The translations under genes were made by a program, and so were the position numbers. Below the pieces are notes generated by a model, which was given only the letters and a program-made list of their open reading frames with translations, made no database searches and was not told the origin of the DNA. Shown here piece by piece: positions 1 through 5,061 of a DNA stretch of 5,061 nt. The stretch comes from a virus (Duplodnaviria > Heunggongvirae > Uroviricota > Caudoviricetes), in the IMG/VR virus record IMGVR_UViG_2585427729_000001, positions 1-5,061 of that record, one strand, 5' to 3'. Within the stretch, counting starts at the first letter, position 1. Every line of letters begins with the position of its first letter.

Positions 1-40
1 TGTCAAGTTTCCCCAAAGTTATTCAAAAAGTCAATATTAT
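1..40 (-). promoter_or_regulatory. Late promoter pR' (-35 and -10 hexamers) with the start of the Q-utilisation (qut) region; transcript start lies at or beyond the window edge
   Basis: Read on the minus strand just downstream of the Q stop: TTGACT (plus 29..34), a 17-nt spacer TTTTGAATAACTTTGGG, then GAAACT (plus 6..11). The layout matches my recollection of lambda pR' (TTGACT, 17 nt, TAAATT), with a weaker -10 here. The position immediately 3' of Q is where pR'/qut lies in lambdoid phages. Confidence 0.6.
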
Positions 41-76: not shown

Positions 77-700
77 CTAACGTGTGATCGCATTCAAAAT
101 GTTGTCTGCGATTGACTCTTCCTTGTGGCATTGCACAACCAGAGCGTCATACAGCGGCTTAACAGTGCGTGACCAGGTGGGTTGGGTAAGGTTTGGGATT
201 AGCATCGTCACAGCGCGATATGCGGCGCTTGCTGGCATTCTTGAATAACCGACGCCTTTACATCTTCCGCACTCTTTCTCAGCAACTATCCCCCACTGCT
301 CTGTTTTGGCTATATCAACCGCACGGCCTGTACCGTGGCAATCTCTGCATCTTGCGCCCGGCGTCGCGGCACTACGGCAATAATCCGCATAAGCGAATGT
401 TGCGAGCACTTGCAGTACCTTTGCCTTAGTATTTCCTTCAAGCTTTGCCACGCCACGGTATTTCCCCGATACCTTGTGTGCAAATTGCATCAGATAGTTG
501 ATAGCCTTTTGTTTGTCGTTCTGGCTGAGTTCGTGCTTACCGCAGAATGCAGCCATTCCGAATCCGGCTTGTGATTGCGCCATCCCCATAGCAGCCATCA
601 CATCAGTACCGGAAAGAGAGTCAGAAGCCGTGGCCCGTGGTGAGTCGCTCATCATCGGGCTTTTTGGCGAATGAAATTTAGCTACGCTTTCGAGTCTCAT
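77..700 (-). CDS. Q: Late-gene antitermination protein Q, lambda-type, 207 aa
   Basis: The track ORF 77..733 has an N-terminal extension; the likely true start is the ATG at 700 (MRLESVAKFHSPKSP...), preceded by GAGGGGAAG. The protein matches lambda Q nearly residue for residue as I recall it, including the Cys cluster CRDCHGTG...CGRCKGVG (zinc finger). The stop lies directly upstream of the pR'-like promoter. Confidence 0.93.
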   Translation of the reverse strand: MRLESVAKFHSPKSPMMSDSPRATASDSLSGTDVMAAMGMAQSQAGFGMAAFCGKHELSQNDKQKAINYLMQFAHKVSGKYRGVAKLEGNTKAKVLQVLATFAYADYCRSAATPGARCRDCHGTGRAVDIAKTEQWGIVAEKECGRCKGVGYSRMPASAAYRAVTMLIPNLTQPTWSRTVKPLYDALVVQCHKEESIADNILNAITR

Positions 701-711
701 CGTCTTCCCCT

Positions 712-846
712 CTATCCTTTGCAATGACACCACACTTCAAACATTCGTTTCACAACCTCACGACAGTAGAAGCCGTAAGCATCGCGGGTAAGATCGTAGC
801 GATTGCCATAACGCTGGCGCATATATCGTTCGAATGCTTTGTTCAT
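712..846 (-). CDS. Small hypothetical protein, 44 aa, YlcG-like by position (between rusA and Q); not in the supplied ORF track
   Basis: Hand translation of the minus strand from ATG at 846..844 gives MNKAFERYMRQRYGNRYDLTRDAYGFYCREVVKRMFEVWCHCKG, ending at TAG 714..712. The start overlaps the rusA stop as ATGA, GGAGAA lies a few nt upstream, and the stop is 11 nt before the Q start. Basic, with a C-x12-C-x-C cluster. The position matches the small ylcG ORF between rusA and Q in DLP12-type prophages. Confidence 0.6.
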   Translation of the reverse strand: MNKAFERYMRQRYGNRYDLTRDAYGFYCREVVKRMFEVWCHCKG

Positions 847-1205
847 GTGTTCTCCAGTTCGGTGATTTTTATTCCAAGCCTTCCGCCTGGTACTTTCACA
901 CCACGAATTACGCGAATGTCATCGAATTGCTCGTCGTCTTCCGCAAATCCGGCGTGGATAAGGGAGTCGAGTAAACCTTTCAGGATGTTGTCGAGGTCGC
1001 GGCGGCGGGAGTCTGGAACGTCTGCGATGACTTTGATACGGAGTCGTGATTTGGTGAAAATGTCTAACTTGAGTTGGCGAATGATTTGCTGAACGTCTTT
1101 TCGGTATTTCTGGCCTTTATCGCTGATGTAGTATTGGCCTCCCCGTCTTCGCCAGTAGGTATTCACCGACGGCGGGTATGGAAGCACAAACTGATATTCG
1201 TTCAT
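843..1205 (-). CDS. rusA: RusA-family Holliday junction resolvase (crossover junction endodeoxyribonuclease), 120 aa
   Basis: Protein MNEYQFVLPYPPSVNTYWRRRGG...DVPDSRRRDLDNILKGLLD...GGRLGIKITELENT shares the hallmark RusA motifs with E. coli RusA as recalled (LP-PPS-N-Y-R, PD-RRRDLDN acidic catalytic region, GGRL...ITE) and the same 120-aa length. The start overlaps the ybcO-like stop as ATGA; GGAGGGG lies upstream. Confidence 0.92.
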   Translation of the reverse strand: MNEYQFVLPYPPSVNTYWRRRGGQYYISDKGQKYRKDVQQIIRQLKLDIFTKSRLRIKVIADVPDSRRRDLDNILKGLLDSLIHAGFAEDDEQFDDIRVIRGVKVPGGRLGIKITELENT

Positions 1206-1492
1206 GGCTTAATCTTCCCCTCCTTCAGCAGTATCGCCTGCGTCCTGATCACGCCTTCGAGGTGGTAAAGTCTGGCGTCTTTGTTGTCGAGGTTATGGGT
1301 GCGTCGGTCGATTTCATCGTGACACGCGCTACAAGCCCATGCGCCGATCAGGTCGTCAGGCTTCATTCCCGTTCCGCAAATTCCAGCCATCCGGTAATGT
1401 GCCAGAACTGTAGTTTCAGGGTTGCCATTGCATACGCCGTAAATACGTACCTGGCATTCTCTGCCGCGAGCTTCTTTGCGTAGGTTAGCCAT
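1202..1492 (-). CDS. ybcO: YbcO-like DUF1364-family protein, putative Zn-binding nuclease, 96 aa
   Basis: Protein MANLRKEARGRECQVRIYGVCNGNPETTVLAH...CSACHDEIDRR... has the same length and Cys/His pattern as the DLP12 prophage YbcO that sits immediately upstream of rusA. RBS GGGGAGG lies about 8 nt upstream; TAATG overlap with the preceding gene. Confidence 0.85.
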   Translation of the reverse strand: MANLRKEARGRECQVRIYGVCNGNPETTVLAHYRMAGICGTGMKPDDLIGAWACSACHDEIDRRTHNLDNKDARLYHLEGVIRTQAILLKEGKIKP

Positions 1493-2214
1493 TAAGCAGC
1501 CTCCCCTGTTACTTTCAGCATTCCGTTATCGAGCAGCTTTCTGGTCAGCCACTGTTGACCACACCCGGTGATTTTTGTGGTGAACGATATCTGTATTCCG
1601 TGATTTGTGTTGACCGCTGTTTCTTTCACTGTGAAATAGCCGCGATCCATATATTCCTGCATTGGCACATTGCGCCGGGAACCTGAAGCAATAAGGATTT
1701 TGTGATCGCGCATCCACGCAAACAGTTTGTTTGGACCAATTCCAACAACCTTTGCAAAGTTTCCAATCAAAATTCCGCTGGCCTCGCCAACGCGATCGGC
1801 AAACTCAACTTTAGGTGCGGCAATTGCTAGCTGGTTTTCCAGTTGCATTTTCTGCTCAGCAAGGTCAGCAGCAAGGCGCAACGCTTCTGGTAGCGTTTTT
1901 GGGATATTAACCGCAGCTTCTTCAAGCTCTCGCCAACGGTCAACAAGGCGAGCCGTGAATTCCGGCGACAACTGGGCTACAACGACAATACTGTCTCGCT
2001 TTCCTTGTTCGCCTTCGAATACATACACACAAAAACTTTGATTTAAGCCTAACCCATTGATTCTTCCACAATCCTCAATTTGAGGAAGCCGGATAACACC
2101 ATTTTTAGCCAGCGTTTCGATGGTACGTTTCACATTGTCATGACGCTTACCAACCAACTCAGCGATTTCAATGCTTGTCATTTTTATGGCATTGCCATTT
2201 ATTAACTCATTCAT
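1492..2214 (-). CDS. Phage regulatory protein of the Rha/antirepressor family (N-terminal Rha-like DNA-binding domain plus C-terminal KilA-C/Ant-like domain); Roi-like, 240 aa
   Basis: The N-terminus MNELINGNAIKMTSIEIAELVGKRHDNVKRTIETL is the characteristic Rha-domain signature. The C-terminal half (...FADRVGEASGILIGNFAKVVGIGPNKLFAWMRDHKIL...) resembles antirepressor KilA-C domains. RBS GAGGAAG precedes the ATG; the start overlaps the upstream small ORF by 8 nt. Confidence 0.85.
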   Translation of the reverse strand: MNELINGNAIKMTSIEIAELVGKRHDNVKRTIETLAKNGVIRLPQIEDCGRINGLGLNQSFCVYVFEGEQGKRDSIVVVAQLSPEFTARLVDRWRELEEAAVNIPKTLPEALRLAADLAEQKMQLENQLAIAAPKVEFADRVGEASGILIGNFAKVVGIGPNKLFAWMRDHKILIASGSRRNVPMQEYMDRGYFTVKETAVNTNHGIQISFTTKITGCGQQWLTRKLLDNGMLKVTGEAA

Positions 2215-2383
2215 CGTCTTCTTCCTCGTACATTGAGCTATTCGGATCGCTCATCAGCTCTGCGCAGCAATCGGAGCACACGTGAACTTCCAGCACATGC
2301 AGCTTCTGACCGCAGTTAGCGCACGTTAAAGCTCGCTCGACGCTTTCTTTCTGGTATTGAAGGGTTTGGGATGGGCTAAGCAT
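2207..2383 (-). CDS. ninF: NinF-like small Cys-rich protein, 58 aa; not in the supplied ORF track
   Basis: Hand translation from ATG 2383..2381 gives [58 protein letters not shown], ending at TGA 2209..2207. It has a CxxC...CxxCC putative zinc-binding motif and an acidic tail. GGAGA lies upstream. Size and position (after ninE/ninX, as in the P22 order ninE-ninX-ninF) fit NinF; I also recall lambda NinF as very similar. Confidence 0.7.
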   Translation of the reverse strand: MLSPSQTLQYQKESVERALTCANCGQKLHVLEVHVCSDCCAELMSDPNSSMYEEEDDE

Positions 2384-2733
2384 TATTGGATTCTCCGCAT
2401 CATGAGAAAGACAATCATGGCGGCACGGAGTGGATTGTCATATGCGACACCAACATTCGGTCCGGCATCATCAAACAAGTCCCTTGCGTTGTCTGTGGCG
2501 CACGGCATTGAGGGATTGTCTAAAATTATGCTGATGTTGTTTTCAGTGATAATCGGCCATGCGTCTGCTGGGTTATTGCAGTAGTCGTACCATCGATAAT
2601 TGCCATTTGCTTCATTGCCAACAGACCGTCCATCTGCGTTGTGCGGATAACCTAATGGTTTTGCCCCAACTATCGCTTTAAATACTCGCTTGTTAATTTC
2701 AAAATCACTTAACTGTGAATAATCCATTGTCAT
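2383..2733 (-). CDS. Hypothetical phage protein, about 116 aa, NinX-like by synteny; function unknown
   Basis: ORF in the track as 2383..2769. The probable start is ATG 2733 (ATGA overlap with the ninE stop) or ATG 2727 (better spacing from GAGG). Protein [60 protein letters not shown]... has no motif I can assign to a known enzymatic function. It sits between ninE and the NinF-like gene, where P22-type phages carry ninX. Confidence 0.75.
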
Positions 2734-2906
2734 TTCCTCGCACGATGTCTTAGCCACCGGATATCCCACAGGTGAGCCGTGTAATTGAAGGTTTTTACGT
2801 CAGATTCTTTTGGGATTGGCTTGCGTTTATTTCTGGAGCGTTTCGTTGGAAGGTATTTGCAGTTTTCGCAGATGATGTCGGTGATACTTCGTCGTTGTCG
2901 CCTCAT
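2730..2906 (-). CDS. ninE: NinE, 58 aa, function unknown
   Basis: The track ORF 2730..2996 is over-extended. The true start is likely ATG 2906 ([58 protein letters not shown]), with AGGAGGG 5 nt upstream and an ATGA overlap with the methyltransferase stop. The sequence closely matches lambda NinE as recalled. Confidence 0.85.
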
Positions 2907-3430
2907 GCCGCCCTCCTGACGCCCTGCCCGATCGCCATCAATGCCGCTTTGGATACGGTAGTAAACATCCGTCGAGGACTGATGAACGGTCGCCAAATCA
3001 GCAGCATGGAGCCTTTGCTGTTTCCCTTCTTCTCCAGCCCTGTCGATGGTTCGATAAAATTAATCCGTCCATCAGTGATAATGCGAACTTCGTCGACACT
3101 CTCCAGAGCCTTGCTGAACCATCCGACAGACATATCCTCTGGCACAAGCATCACTACCGTCTGTCGTTGTTGTATGCACTGCTCAGCGGCTTTTTCCACC
3201 CACGGCCTGATATTGCTGTACGGTGGGTTATTCCAGATTGCACCGTGGCTTATCCACTCAGAATTTAGCGCGTCGTCAGCCTCAGTTAGCCAGTGAGCGC
3301 ACAGAGCATTTTTGTCGCTCGCTGCCGAATCCAGCCAGAATCCAAACTCAATATCCAGTGCATCAAAAAGCCAGAGCGGCGTTTGCCAGCAGTCCTTGTC
3401 GTGTGATGGCGTATTTGATTTGATAGTCAT
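2903..3430 (-). CDS. dam: Phage Dam-family DNA N6-adenine methyltransferase, small orphan methyltransferase of about 175 aa
   Basis: Track ORF 2903..3490; the probable start is ATG 3430 ([26 protein letters not shown]...), overlapping the ninB stop as ATGA. It contains the NPPY catalytic motif (IWNNPPYSN) and the N-terminal D-x-W-x-TP signature typical of the phage Dam family. No restriction endonuclease gene is adjacent. Confidence 0.88.
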
Positions 3431-3867
3431 GCAGCCCGATCTCCCCATCGCGCTTTCCATTCGAGAGCCAGTCGCGCTTCGTCTGACCACTTAACGCCAC
3501 GCTCTGTACCGAATGCCTGTATAAGCTCTAATAGCTCCGCAAATTCGCTTACACGCATCCTGCTGGTTGACTGGCCTATTACCACAAAGCCATTCCCGGC
3601 AAGGTTAGGAACAACGTCCTGCTGCTTTAATGCTGCTGTAAAAACGCACTTCCAGCTTTCTGCATCCAGCCAGCGACCATGCCATTCAACCTGACGAGAG
3701 ACGTCACCAAGGCAAGCCCAAAGCTTTCGATTCTGGTCTAAGCTGCGGTTGCGTTCCTGAATGGTTACTACGATTGGTTTGGTTGGGTCTGGAAGAATTT
3801 GCTGTACCGCGTGAATAGCGTTTTGCTGATGTGCTGGAGATCGAATTTCAAAGGTTAGTTTTTTCAT
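3427..3867 (-). CDS. ninB: NinB (lambda Orf), recombination mediator, 146 aa
   Basis: The track ORF 3427..3885 starts at a TTG. The real start is probably ATG 3867 (MKKLTFEIRSPAHQQNAIHAVQQILPDPTKP...), with GGAGAGGGAAG upstream. It matches lambda NinB/Orf as recalled. Confidence 0.9.
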   Translation of the reverse strand: MKKLTFEIRSPAHQQNAIHAVQQILPDPTKPIVVTIQERNRSLDQNRKLWACLGDVSRQVEWHGRWLDAESWKCVFTAALKQQDVVPNLAGNGFVVIGQSTSRMRVSEFAELLELIQAFGTERGVKWSDEARLALEWKARWGDRAA

Positions 3868-3884: not shown

Positions 3885-3916
3885 AATAAAAAGGCCTGCG
3901 ATTACCAGCAGGCCTG
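3885..3916 (-). terminator. Intrinsic (rho-independent) terminator between ren and ninB, lambda tR2-like
   Basis: The minus-strand RNA would read ...CAGGCCUGC-ugguaauc-GCAGGCCUG followed by UUUUUAUUUGGGGG. The stem is plus 3892..3899 paired with 3908..3915, with an 8-nt loop and a U-tract 3' on the minus-sense transcript. It lies in the only sizeable intergenic gap (3868..3940). On the plus strand no T-tract follows, so it is unidirectional. Confidence 0.75.
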
Positions 3917-3940: not shown

Positions 3941-4231
3941 TCATCTTTTAACTCCATATACCGCCAATACCCGTTTCATCGCGGCACTCTGGCGACACTC
4001 CTTAAAAATCAGGTTCGTGCTCACCTTTCCTTCCCGTTCTTCTCTGGTAGCGAACCGGTAATACACCGTTCGCCAGACCTTACCTTCGATAACCAGAAGA
4101 CCTGCCCGTGCCATTTTAGCCGCGGCCTGATTTATGCTGGTTACTGTTGCGCCTGTTAGCGCGGAAACGTCCTGTGCACAGAAGCTCTTATGCGTTCCGA
4201 GGTAATGAATAATTGCCTCTTTGCCCGTCAT
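3941..4231 (-). CDS. ren: Ren protein, 96 aa
   Basis: Protein MTGKEAIIHYLGTHKSFCAQDVSALTGATVTSINQAAAKMARAGLLVIEGKVWRTVYYRFATREEREGK... matches lambda Ren as recalled in length and sequence. ATGA overlap with the P stop. Confidence 0.9.
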   Translation of the reverse strand: MTGKEAIIHYLGTHKSFCAQDVSALTGATVTSINQAAAKMARAGLLVIEGKVWRTVYYRFATREEREGKVSTNLIFKECRQSAAMKRVLAVYGVKR

Positions 4232-4929
4232 ACACTTGCTCCTTTCAGTCCGAACTTAGCTTTAATTTCTGCGATCTTCGCCAGAGCCTGTGCTCGATTT
4301 AGAGGTCTGCCGCCCATGACAGGAAGTTGTTTTACTGGTTCAGGTATAGTCTCACCACAGTTAATTCGCGCTGTCATACAGGTCAGCTCATCGGCAGCCT
4401 TACGCCGTAATTCCGCGTCAGTCAGCGCATTGGCCCGCATGTTCTGGTACAGGTTGGTAACCAGCCAGTAGTGCGCGTTTGATTTCCACGGATAAGACTC
4501 TGCATCTGGATACAGGCCACGCTTCCGGCAATACTCGTAAACCATATCAACCAGCTCGCTGGCGTTTGGCAGTCCGGCAATAACAGATGCTTCTTCACGA
4601 CACCAGGCAACAAACTGCCCGGGTGATGGCAGGAATGGTCGATTCTGCCGACGGGCTACGCGCATTCCTGCGTTAACCTGTTCCATCGTGGTGATCCCGT
4701 TTTCCCGGAAAGCCAGAACCCACTGGCGGCGGATTTCGTTCAGTTCGTTCTGGTCACGGTTAGCCAGGCTCGCCGGGAAAGTTGCCAGTAACTGGCTGAA
4801 CACACCGTTGATGATCTGCGCTACCTGCTGTACCTGCGGCTTTTCGTCGTACTGTTCCGGCATGTTGTTGGCGATCCGACGCATCTGCTCACGGTCAAAG
4901 TTAACCATCTGTGCGGCGATGTTTTTCAT
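4228..4929 (-). CDS. P: Replication protein P (helicase loader), 233 aa
   Basis: Protein MKNIAAQMVNFDREQMRRIANNMPEQYDEKPQVQQVAQIINGVF... matches lambda P as recalled, full length 233 aa. The start overlaps the O stop as ATGA. Confidence 0.93.
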   Translation of the reverse strand: MKNIAAQMVNFDREQMRRIANNMPEQYDEKPQVQQVAQIINGVFSQLLATFPASLANRDQNELNEIRRQWVLAFRENGITTMEQVNAGMRVARRQNRPFLPSPGQFVAWCREEASVIAGLPNASELVDMVYEYCRKRGLYPDAESYPWKSNAHYWLVTNLYQNMRANALTDAELRRKAADELTCMTARINCGETIPEPVKQLPVMGGRPLNRAQALAKIAEIKAKFGLKGASV

Positions 4930-5061
4930 AAATCCACCCCGTAAATCCAGTCTGTGTTTGTCAAGTCGAGTTTTGGTTTGCTGGCTGTCACGACTGCCTG
5001 TTGCTTGTTACGGTTGATTTCGAGCTGGGTCCACTTGTCGCGGAGTTTGGCCGGGCTCAGC
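4926..5061 (-). CDS. O: Replication initiator O, C-terminal fragment only (5' end lies beyond the window)
   Basis: The minus-strand frame ending at TGA 4928..4926 translates as ...LSPAKLRDKWTQLEINRNKQQAVVTASKPKLDLTNTDWIYGVDL, matching the C-terminus of lambda O as recalled (the P-interacting domain). It runs off the right edge of the window. Confidence 0.85.
   Translation of the reverse strand, partial: LSPAKLRDKWTQLEINRNKQQAVVTASKPKLDLTNTDWIYGVDL

Follow-up and report, generated by a model that had tools for sequence, protein, structure and literature searches.

A lambdoid prophage nin region, patchwork relative to lambda and very probably of the HK97/HK140/E212 type with two small cassette swaps

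The window, meaning the whole 5,061-nt stretch of DNA analysed here, is very probably a segment of the early-right (pR) operon of a lambdoid E. coli prophage, bounded by the end of O and the late promoter. Its minus-strand gene order is O', P, ren, ninB, dam, ninE, ninX, ninF, roi, a ybcO-family gene, rusA, a 44-aa ORF (orf44) and Q. Genes were identified through Pfam, PHROGs and PDB and through a 99.9%-identical prophage annotated by PGAP, and each of the 12 complete ORFs has the full length of its homologues. The features are as follows.

4926..5061, minus strand: O', 3' end of a lambda-type replication gene O, truncated by the window edge
4228..4929, minus strand: P, lambda-type replication gene, 233 aa (aa identity 97.0% to lambda P, 97.9% to HK140 P)
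3941..4231, minus strand: ren, 96 aa (94.8% aa to lambda Ren; annotated 'protein ren')
3892..3915, minus strand: candidate intrinsic terminator in the ren-ninB spacer, 8-bp GC-rich stem plus T run
3427..3867, minus strand: ninB/orf recombination mediator, 146 aa, conserved linker gene (PF05772, E=1e-54)
2903..3430, minus strand: orphan Dam-family N6-adenine DNA methyltransferase, 175 aa, at the lambda ninC/ninD position (PF05869, E=7e-65)
2730..2906, minus strand: ninE, 58 aa, conserved linker gene (PF05322, E=7e-44)
2383..2727, minus strand: ninX (DUF2591), 114 aa, cassette in the ninE/ninF slot (PF10765, E=3e-16; phrog_444)
2207..2383, minus strand: ninF, 58 aa, 5' end P22-type (PF05810, E=8e-14)
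1492..2214, minus strand: roi-type Rha + KilAC DNA-binding protein, 240 aa (PF09669, PF03374)
1202..1492, minus strand: YbcO-family (DUF1364) putative nuclease, 96 aa (PF07102, E=2e-44; PDB 3g27, E=3e-40)
843..1205, minus strand: rusA Holliday-junction resolvase, 120 aa (PF05866, E=6e-17; PDB 1q8r, E=4e-27)
712..846, minus strand: orf44, conserved protein, 44 aa, in the place of ninH (phrog_3871, E=2e-30)
77..700, minus strand: Q, lambda-type late antiterminator, 207 aa (PF03589, E=1e-57)
6..34, minus strand: predicted pR' late promoter with qut site, position transferred from the HK140 annotation

An earlier note, made from the letters alone, had called O, P, Ren, NinB, NinE and Q lambda-like, and their nucleotide identities to lambda bear this out (96.3, 95.2, 96.6, 95.2, 96.4 and 97.4%, respectively). 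At the protein level NinB is 99.3% identical to lambda and to HK97 alike, NinE 94.6% to lambda and 98.3% to P22, NinF 84.6% to lambda and 94.7% to P22, and Q 98.1% to lambda Q; the O' region is annotated 'replication protein' in the 99.9%-identical prophage. The ren-ninB spacer is conserved as well, its 60-nt windows across 3922-3863 being 100% identical to lambda, and the candidate terminator within it occupies what we take to be the position of lambda tR2. The pR' promoter was mapped from HK140, where it lies at 6216-6244 of sequence L002, through the gap-free alignment of window 713-2 with L002 5537-6248.

Between these genes the content differs. The Dam-family methyltransferase stands at the ninC/ninD position as the note had said; the segment has no match to lambda, and its product carries an NPPY motif at residues 67-70 and is 98.9% identical in amino acids to its counterparts in HK97 and HK140. 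The suggestion of anti-defence genes is weakly supported: Dam matches the 'orphan methyltransferase' models of PADLOC, and no other gene of the window matched a defence library. A NinX-like ORF follows ninE as in P22. In place of ninG, ninH and ninI, the proposed Rha + KilAC protein, YbcO-family protein and RusA were recovered by Pfam, and the last small ORF does end 11 nt upstream of Q (stop at 712, Q ATG at 700). It is not the ylcG gene it had been taken for: orf44 aligned in BLASTP with neither DLP12 YlcG nor phage 82 orf45, nor did it align with NinH, and the identification with YlcG was rejected.

Relative to lambda, the region 700-3430 reads as a patchwork. The only segments of the window matching lambda are 5061-3427, 2899-2733, 2349-2212 and 714-2, with 93-97% nucleotide identity across O-P-ren-ninB, ninE, ninF and Q, and the match is lost at 3427, 2906-2899, 2733, 2383-2349, 2212 and 714. 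The junctions proposed earlier at 3430, 2906, 2733, 2214 and 712..700 were thus placed nearly correctly (found at 3427, 2899, 2733, 2212 and 714); overlooked was ninF, a further lambda-like island that adds the junction 2383-2349. Six of seven junctions lie at most 7 nt from a start or stop codon; by a rough estimate such closeness to a gene boundary applies to about 5% of the positions in 700-3430, which gives a chance probability of about 1e-7. In base-level alignments the breaks coincide with ribosome-binding sites or with stop and start codons overlapping as ATGA: ninB/dam at a common GCATGA, ninF/roi at the roi ATG, and rusA/orf44 at a common ATGAAC, while at orf44/Q the orf44 stop codon is followed by 12 nt, AGAGGGGAAGAC, equal to the HK97 ninH 3' end plus the Q ribosome-binding site. 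The exception is the ninF junction, about 34 nt within the gene, these first nucleotides matching P22 and E212 and not lambda or HK97. Further variation away from gene boundaries consists of diverged patches within roi (about 2122-1943, 56-88% nt to HK97/HK140) and P (4402-4343, 78% to lambda versus 93% to the DLP12 P remnant). As judged from these alignments, the reading of joints at gene boundaries, as modular exchange predicts, holds.

The framing of lambda flanks around a replaced cassette is nevertheless only partly apt. The region is mosaic with respect to lambda, and the supposed cassette corresponds to a known kind of nin region: in all likelihood this is an HK97/HK140/E212-type region carrying two small cassette swaps, with no novel cassette between lambda flanks, and a lambda-centred view misleads. 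From ninB to rusA the window is 92-98% identical in nucleotides and 86-99% in amino acids to published examples of that type. HK140 aligns over 5060-2733 (96.8%), 2349-824 (95.3%) and 713-2 (95.5%), and HK97 over 3879-2733 (97.8%) and 2349-824 (92.6%); within 700-3430, HK97 is collinear over about 81% of the positions (92.5-97.8% identity), and for the window as a whole HK140 and E212 each reach a coverage of 90-91% at about 96%. Given that the HK97/HK140 alignments are 1.1-2.3 kb long, an artefact of similarity is unlikely. Uniform high identity across 700-3430 was found for none of lambda, P22, HK97, phage 82 and DLP12. For Roi the amino-acid identity is 95% with HK140 and 86% with HK97. Since a near-identical arrangement has already been sequenced and annotated in HK97, HK140, E212 and E. 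coli genomes, the region is ordinary and well understood.

By these comparisons two cassettes distinguish the window from HK97, HK140 and E212, namely ninX in the ninE/ninF slot and orf44 in place of ninH. The gene ninX is not present in lambda, HK97 or HK140; over its full length it is 83% identical in nucleotides to HK544, HK106 and mEp234, and its product is 43% identical to P22 NinX. Three inserts occupy the slot within identical boundary sequences: ninX of the window, the P22 ninX and an unrelated 135-aa ORF of E212. Similarly, orf44 swaps for ninH exactly, from start codon through stop codon. It has no Pfam or NCBIfam match, is 75% identical in amino acids to BP-4795 ORF3, and belongs to a family (84 homologue clusters) whose usual site is just upstream of xis-int.

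The arrangement recurs across independent genomes. An annotated prophage of E. coli 19KM2326N matches the window over its whole length at 99.9%, coverage is 97% or more at an identity of at least 98.9% in four complete E. coli genomes, and the rusA-orf44-Q joint occurs in 15 of 5426 genomes, E2348/69 among them. Lambdoid prophages with near-identical linker genes are frequent, several to an E. coli genome, with up to 9 places per genome matching the window, and an assembly or scaffolding artefact joining reads from co-resident prophages might be imagined; it is scarcely credible when four complete genomes of dog and human isolates, assembled independently of one another, carry the 5061-nt arrangement at 98.9-99.9%, and every complete ORF of the window is intact. 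Very improbable, too, is a lambda backbone in which a DLP12/phage 82 ybcO-rusA-ylcG block replaced ninG-ninH-ninI, dam and ninX being inserted separately. The order ybcO-rusA-small ORF-Q agrees at the family level, Pfam assigns the same two families and PDB 3g27 is itself 'phage 82 ybcO', but alignment to DLP12 and phage 82 is limited to 183 nt at 74%. YbcO and RusA are 72% and 44% identical in amino acids to those of DLP12/phage 82, as against 98-99% (HK97 gp66, 97.9%) and 97-98% (HK97, 97.5%) to HK97 and HK140, so that the DLP12/phage-82 type assigned earlier does not stand. Further, the small ORF is unlike YlcG or orf45, Q does not align significantly with QuuD or Q82, and dam-ninE-ninF-roi-ybcO-rusA forms one block collinear with HK97.

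A further question is how the joints arose. That the Hendrix/Juhala model (illegitimate recombination at random, then selection of products whose genes are intact) accounts for most of them, with linker homology minor, is unlikely, although part of the evidence leans that way: identity between cassette and recipient at orf44 amounts to the 6-nt ATGAAC on the left and at most 2 nt on the right, its donor locus upstream of xis otherwise has no homology to the nin region, and recognisable homeologous shoulders occur at no more than half of mosaic joints (PMC2327257). Against it stand the identical ninE/ninF slot boundaries around three unrelated inserts, the dominance of homology-dependent acquisition in experiments (PMC3945230), and linker genes 95-100% identical across phages, in which alleles common to different phages form a patchwork (at the variable sites of ninB, lambda-like and HK97-like alleles are intermixed). 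Linker identity and patchwork alleles together fit repeated exchange of an existing cassette by homologous recombination; the two processes are complementary, not exclusive.

We suggest that the conserved linker genes ninB, ninE, ninF and Q would serve as homology arms among co-resident lambdoid phages and prophages, homologous or homeologous recombination within them exchanging the DNA between arms. Original insertions, such as that of orf44 from a xis-proximal locus, may have involved illegitimate or microhomology-mediated joining, and selection would retain only joints that keep ribosome-binding sites and the ATGA overlaps by which translation is coupled. Such a scheme has precedents: nin regions have been called 'typically mosaic' (PMC2629481), lambda Red recombines diverged sequences (PMC2327257), and temperate phages gain prophage DNA via homology regions (PMC3945230). 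Transcription of the block would start at pR and read past the tR2-like terminator toward Q, and the predicted role of the block, from family membership, is non-essential recombination and repair (NinB/Orf mediator, RusA resolvase, putative YbcO nuclease). Likewise, Dam is predicted to methylate DNA and could protect against restriction, Roi is a predicted DNA-binding regulator, and NinE, NinX and NinF are three further small proteins of the block.

Lambda (J02459) shares O, P, ren, the tR2 spacer, ninB, ninE, most of ninF and Q, with order and orientation kept, whereas it has ninC/ninD where the window has dam, ninG(rap)-ninH-ninI where the window has roi-ybcO-rusA-orf44, and no ninX. P22 (NC_002371) shares the ninE-ninX-ninF architecture with identical slot boundaries and a gene 23/Q product 96.1% identical in amino acids, but its NinX is far more distant than its NinE and NinF, and it carries ninD, ninG, ninY, ninH and ninZ and lacks dam, roi, ybcO and rusA. 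DLP12 and phage 82 also have members of the YbcO and RusA families, in that order, immediately before the Q gene; their YlcG/orf45 is unrelated to orf44 and their Q is of the QuuD/Q82 type, unlike the lambda Q of the window. The EPEC E2348/69 prophage (NC_011601, 1.053-1.059 Mb) has identical accessions for Roi, DUF1364, RusA, orf44 and Q and a rusA-orf44-Q joint 100% identical in nucleotides. It aligns over 84% of the window at 98.3% identity but is without ninX, and an additional ORF of 108 aa separates its ren from its ninB. HK97 (NC_002167; nin region, Juhala et al. 2000, as cited in PMC2327257) is collinear over ninB-dam-ninE-ninF-roi-gp66-rusA-(ninH)-Q, with a diverged N-terminal patch in Roi, but its replication genes are P22-like (one resembling O, the other for a DnaB-type helicase) where the window has lambda O-P-ren, ninX is missing, and ninH stands in place of orf44. 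Finally, HK140 (NC_019710) and E212 (MZ043897) share lambda-type O-P-ren, ninB, dam, ninE, ninF, roi, the ybcO-family gene, rusA and lambda-type Q, and differ in having ninH (62 aa) between rusA and Q and, where the window has ninX, an empty slot in HK140 and the 135-aa ORF in E212.

All substantial plausible ORFs in the window lie on the minus strand, and from P through Q they are contiguous and co-oriented, which is the position of a nin region. The E. coli 19KM2326N prophage (NZ_CP151038, about 3.80-3.84 Mb) matches all 5061 nt at 99.9% identity, and three more complete genomes match 97-100% of the window at 98.9-99.7%. The gene map below combines the PGAP annotation of the 19KM2326N prophage, the best match, with Pfam scans.

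4926-5061, minus strand: 3' end of O (PGAP annotation of best match)
4228-4929, minus strand: P (PGAP annotation of best match)
3941-4231, minus strand: ren (PGAP annotation of best match)
3427-3867, minus strand: ninB (PF05772)
2903-3430, minus strand: Dam-family methyltransferase (PF05869, E=7e-65)
2730-2906, minus strand: ninE (PF05322)
2383-2727, minus strand: ninX (PF10765)
2207-2383, minus strand: ninF (PF05810)
1492-2214, minus strand: Rha+KilAC protein, roi (PF09669 and PF03374)
1202-1492, minus strand: YbcO-family protein (PF07102)
843-1205, minus strand: RusA (PF05866)
712-846, minus strand: orf44, 44 aa, without a Pfam match
77-700, minus strand: lambda-type Q (PF03589)

The conserved nin genes ninB (orf), ninE and ninF are all present above the gathering scores of PF05772, PF05322 and PF05810, and their products share 85-99% amino acid identity with those of lambda. 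An NCBIfam scan added nothing further except a weak Rha match, and no Rfam family reached its gathering score in the window. On the 3' side of the lambda-type Q, the 19KM2326N prophage (L001 8238-11061) encodes an RrrD lysozyme and a holin of class II in place of lambda S/R, with several pseudogene fragments (e.g. DUF1737) between Q and these genes; the mosaic therefore extends into the late region.

The window was compared by blastn with lambda, HK97, HK140, E212, P22, DLP12 and the phage 82 rus-Q fragment, and identity was followed per gene and in 60-nt sliding windows. Lambda aligns in four blocks, 5061-3427 (O', P, ren and ninB; 95.7%), 2899-2733 (ninE; 96.4%), 2349-2212 (ninF; 92.8%) and 714-2 (Q; 96.1%), and outside these four blocks blastn returned no alignment. 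The drops, at 3427, 2906-2899, 2733, 2383-2349, 2212 and 714, are abrupt, identity falling from 93-98% to 0% within a single 60-nt window. At base level, lambda homology stops where ninB overlaps the following gene (stop/start GCATGA), restarts near the start codon and ribosome-binding site of ninE, stops again within the last ninE codons, ends exactly at the roi ATG that overlaps the ninF stop, and restarts at the orf44 stop codon, 14 nt 5' of the Q ATG. One junction falls within a gene, the first ~34 nt of ninF being of P22/E212 type and not of lambda/HK97 type. A rough calculation puts about 5% of the positions between 700 and 3430 at 7 nt or less from a gene boundary, and the chance that six of seven junctions would lie so close is near 1e-7; the gene-boundary pattern is therefore real. 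The boundaries away from gene edges are the ninF junction and divergent patches inside roi and P. The roi patch (about 2122-1943, minus strand), in the N-terminal Rha-domain part, has 56-88% nucleotide identity to HK97/HK140, against 93-100% for the remaining gene. The P patch (4402-4343, minus strand, 60 nt) shares only 78% identity with lambda, HK140 and E212 but 93% with peaD, the P remnant of DLP12 (L006 377-775); overall, peaD/renD of this K-12 cryptic prophage match window positions 4539-3956 at 93-95%.

An earlier note, made from the sequence by eye, had placed five junctions at about 3430, 2906, 2733, 2214 and 712..700, all right within a few bases of the measured drops, and its 11-nt spacer 5' of Q stands at 701-711. 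The mosaic that it described is real and quantitatively sound, apart from three labelling errors. One of these is the oversight of ninF (2207-2383), a further lambda-like island that adds one junction. The other two concern the origin of the replaced genes, which had been assigned to a DLP12/phage-82-type ybcO-rusA-ylcG block. At family level this assignment has a basis, given that YbcO and RusA family proteins (PF07102, PF05866) do lie adjacent to one another upstream of Q. The families are the ones found in DLP12 and phage 82, but the alleles are distant: amino acid identity is 72% for YbcO and 44% for RusA, and 183 nt align, at 74%. Likewise, orf44, which had been named ylcG, gives no BLASTP alignment to DLP12 YlcG at E<=100 and none to phage 82 orf45. 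Blastn and blastp thus rule out DLP12 and phage 82 as donors. Against HK97 and HK140, the gene order ninB-dam-ninE-ninF-roi-gp66(YbcO)-rusA is found at >90% nucleotide identity, with window 3879-2733 aligning at 97.8% to HK97 and 96.8% to HK140, and 2349-824 at 92.6% and 95.3%, respectively. At the protein level, identity to HK97/HK140 is 98.9% for the Dam protein, 96.6% for NinE, 98-99% for the YbcO-family protein, 97-98% for RusA and 97.6% for Q, while Roi is 86% identical to that of HK97 and 95% to that of HK140. HK140 and E212 further have the lambda-type O-P-ren of the window, and cover 90-91% of it at ~96%. Modular exchange is right in kind as a reading of this region; what was exchanged is not a novel replacement in a lambda genome, it is a known HK97/HK140-type nin region.

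The slot between ninE and ninF (2732-2350) holds ninX in the window. In P22 the same slot (L007 2498-2836) also holds a ninX, whose product is 43% identical in amino acids to that of the window, whereas in E212 (L005 3829-4236) it holds an unrelated 135-aa ORF, and lambda, HK97 and HK140 have no insert. The left boundary on the ninE 3' side, …GAGGAAATGACAATG, and the right boundary at the P22-type ninF 5' end, ATGCTTAGCCCATC…, are the same in the window, P22 and E212. The insert-free phages have another ninE 3' end and another ninF 5' end. NinX matches PF10765 (DUF2591) at 60.1 bits (cut-off 22.6), residues 2-111 covering profile positions 1-114 of 114, and phrog_444 at E=1e-38; a sequence search found no solved structure for it. 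Nucleotide identity of the window ninX is 83% over the full length to HK544, HK106 and mEp234, and over some stretches it reaches 96-98% to JEP4 and HK446; ninX is therefore itself a patchwork.

The second slot, between rusA and Q (about 841-714), is occupied by ninH in HK97, HK140 and E212, and in the window by orf44, which takes the place of ninH precisely, start codon to stop codon. On the left, the joint falls where the rusA stop overlaps the next ATG, and ninH and orf44 have the hexamer ATGAAC in common there; on the right, it falls at the stop codon of orf44, and the next 12 nt, AGAGGGGAAGAC, are the same as those of the 3' end of ninH and the Q ribosome-binding site in HK97. Of 5426 complete E. 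coli genomes, 15 have the rusA-orf44-Q joint, among them E2348/69 at 100% identity, and records sampled from other parts of the ranking have ninH annotated at this position. BLASTP gave no match between orf44 and ninH, and ninH is rejected as its identity. Pfam gave no match to orf44 either; it matches phrog_3871 (E=2e-30), a family labelled as of unknown function, and its homologues form 84 clusters of 44-48 aa, all unnamed, from the genera Escherichia, Salmonella, Klebsiella, Enterobacter, Cronobacter and Pantoea. Fifteen positions are invariant among 20 members of the family alignment, which argues that orf44 is a real gene under constraint. The AlphaFold model has two helices with a short hairpin-like turn between them and good confidence (pLDDT 88), and Foldseek found no fold match to it in the PDB (best E=2.9). 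Zinc binding by its Cys and His residues was rejected, since homologues have F, S or A at the position of C28.

In every other context inspected (BP-4795 ORF3, four E. coli loci and four more loci that share this xis-int arrangement), the orf44 family lies directly upstream of xis (DUF1233)-int, in the early-left operon. The members compared lie at 2500-2634 of locus L008 and at 2501-2647 of loci L012-L019. Given this xis-int-proximal home, the presence of orf44 beside Q represents a transfer between operons: a family normally fixed upstream of xis-int in enterobacterial lambdoid prophages has had a copy transplanted, ORF for ORF, into the early-right ninH slot in a small lineage, the 15 E. 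coli genomes above. No flanking homology was found at the joints besides the 6-nt ATGAAC, which points to insertion by an illegitimate or microhomology joint. It is conceivable, but improbable, that orf44 is a self-contained small effector acting independently of its neighbours (e.g. a host-takeover, anti-defence or excision-timing factor), in which case relocation would shift the timing of its expression. It is the only element here without a described precedent.

Several functions may be predicted for the remaining genes. The Dam protein, assigned to a family of DNA N6-adenine methyltransferases, matches PF05869 at 218 bits (cut-off 28.1), residues 4-169 covering profile positions 1-167 of 169, and its translation contains the catalytic (D/N)PP(Y/F) motif as NPPY. 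GATC is the expected target for relatives of this family. The Dam protein of the window matches PADLOC 'orphan methyltransferase' models, no partner nuclease gene lies within the window, and it plausibly protects phage DNA from restriction. None of the other nin proteins matches a defence-system model; the Dam protein is therefore the one product here to which the remark that anti-defence genes accumulate may apply. Roi carries an N-terminal Rha DNA-binding domain (PF09669) at residues 12-99 and a C-terminal KilAC/ANT domain (PF03374) at residues 126-228, both above cut-off. Its homologues are implicated in HK022 lytic growth according to PMC3430580, citing Clerget & Boccard 1996, the title of which, as given there, states that in IHF mutants HK022 Roi inhibits lytic growth of the phage. 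According to PMC2327257 and PMC3945230, NinB/Orf is a loader of RecA or Red-beta, and lambda resolves junctions with Rap; here RusA, not Rap, is the predicted Holliday-junction resolvase, by its match to PDB 1q8r, and the YbcO-family protein is a putative nuclease (PDB 3g27).

Within the nin region, predicted promoters and terminators show no excess over shuffled sequence (4 versus 4.4 and 6 versus 5.9). A strong terminator-like hairpin at 3915-3892 (minus strand), in the ren-ninB spacer, reads AGGCCTGC…GCAGGCCT followed by a T run; it lies at the position of lambda tR2, and the spacer there matches lambda at 100%. In lambda, tR2 lies upstream of ninB and makes Q expression N-dependent. Of the predicted signals, only the tR2-like hairpin is credible, being conserved. 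The pR' late promoter with its qut site, transferred from the HK140 annotation, lies downstream of Q at 34-6 (minus strand), so the window ends just within the late-operon leader.

Unrelated cassettes thus sit between identical boundaries. Among lambda, P22, HK97 and HK140, identity in the linker genes (ninB, ninE, ninF and Q) is 92-100%, and the variable sites of these genes carry a patchwork of alleles shared with different phages. Cassettes probably spread by homologous or homeologous recombination in these linker genes, between co-resident lambdoid phages and prophages, while the founding insertions would have arisen by illegitimate joining and selection would keep joints that leave genes intact and translationally coupled. 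This is the standard account of lambdoid mosaics. Illegitimate-recombination (citing Juhala et al. 2000), boundary-sequence (citing Clark et al. 2001) and homeologous models are summarised in PMC2327257, which also shows that Red recombines sequences 22% diverged; lambda and phi80 acquire prophage DNA in a homology-dependent manner, including via nin-region homology (PMC3945230).

The findings have little significance beyond accurate annotation. They do provide a corrected reading (an HK97-type and not a DLP12/82-type block, with ninF present and a small ORF that is not ylcG), a clean case, resolved to the base, in which two slots (ninE/ninF and rusA/Q) take unrelated cassettes, and one gene, orf44, that has moved between the two early operons. 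A mosaic nin region whose junctions coincide with gene boundaries is the textbook case of lambdoid modular evolution, and genome records of phages and of E. coli already contain the present arrangement in annotated form; the relocation of a xis-proximal small gene family to the ninH slot is the only mildly unusual item. A closely related prophage, that of the EPEC reference strain E2348/69, lacks ninX, and its Roi, DUF1364, RusA, orf44 and Q proteins bear the same accessions; having orf44 without ninX, it is one of the two intermediates that independent cassette swaps would predict (the other would have ninX with ninH). Between ren and ninB it further carries a hypothetical ORF of 108 aa (L010 2694-3020) that is absent from the window, and the ren-ninB (tR2) spacer looks like another cassette slot. 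Members of the HK97/HK140 type have ninH between rusA and Q and ninF right after ninE; the window, with orf44 in the place of ninH and ninX between ninE and ninF, is therefore a variant of that type, differing from HK97, HK140 and E212 in only these two short cassettes. On gene order and alignment, the block is an HK97-type nin region, the known and annotated HK97/HK140 type with two small cassette variants.
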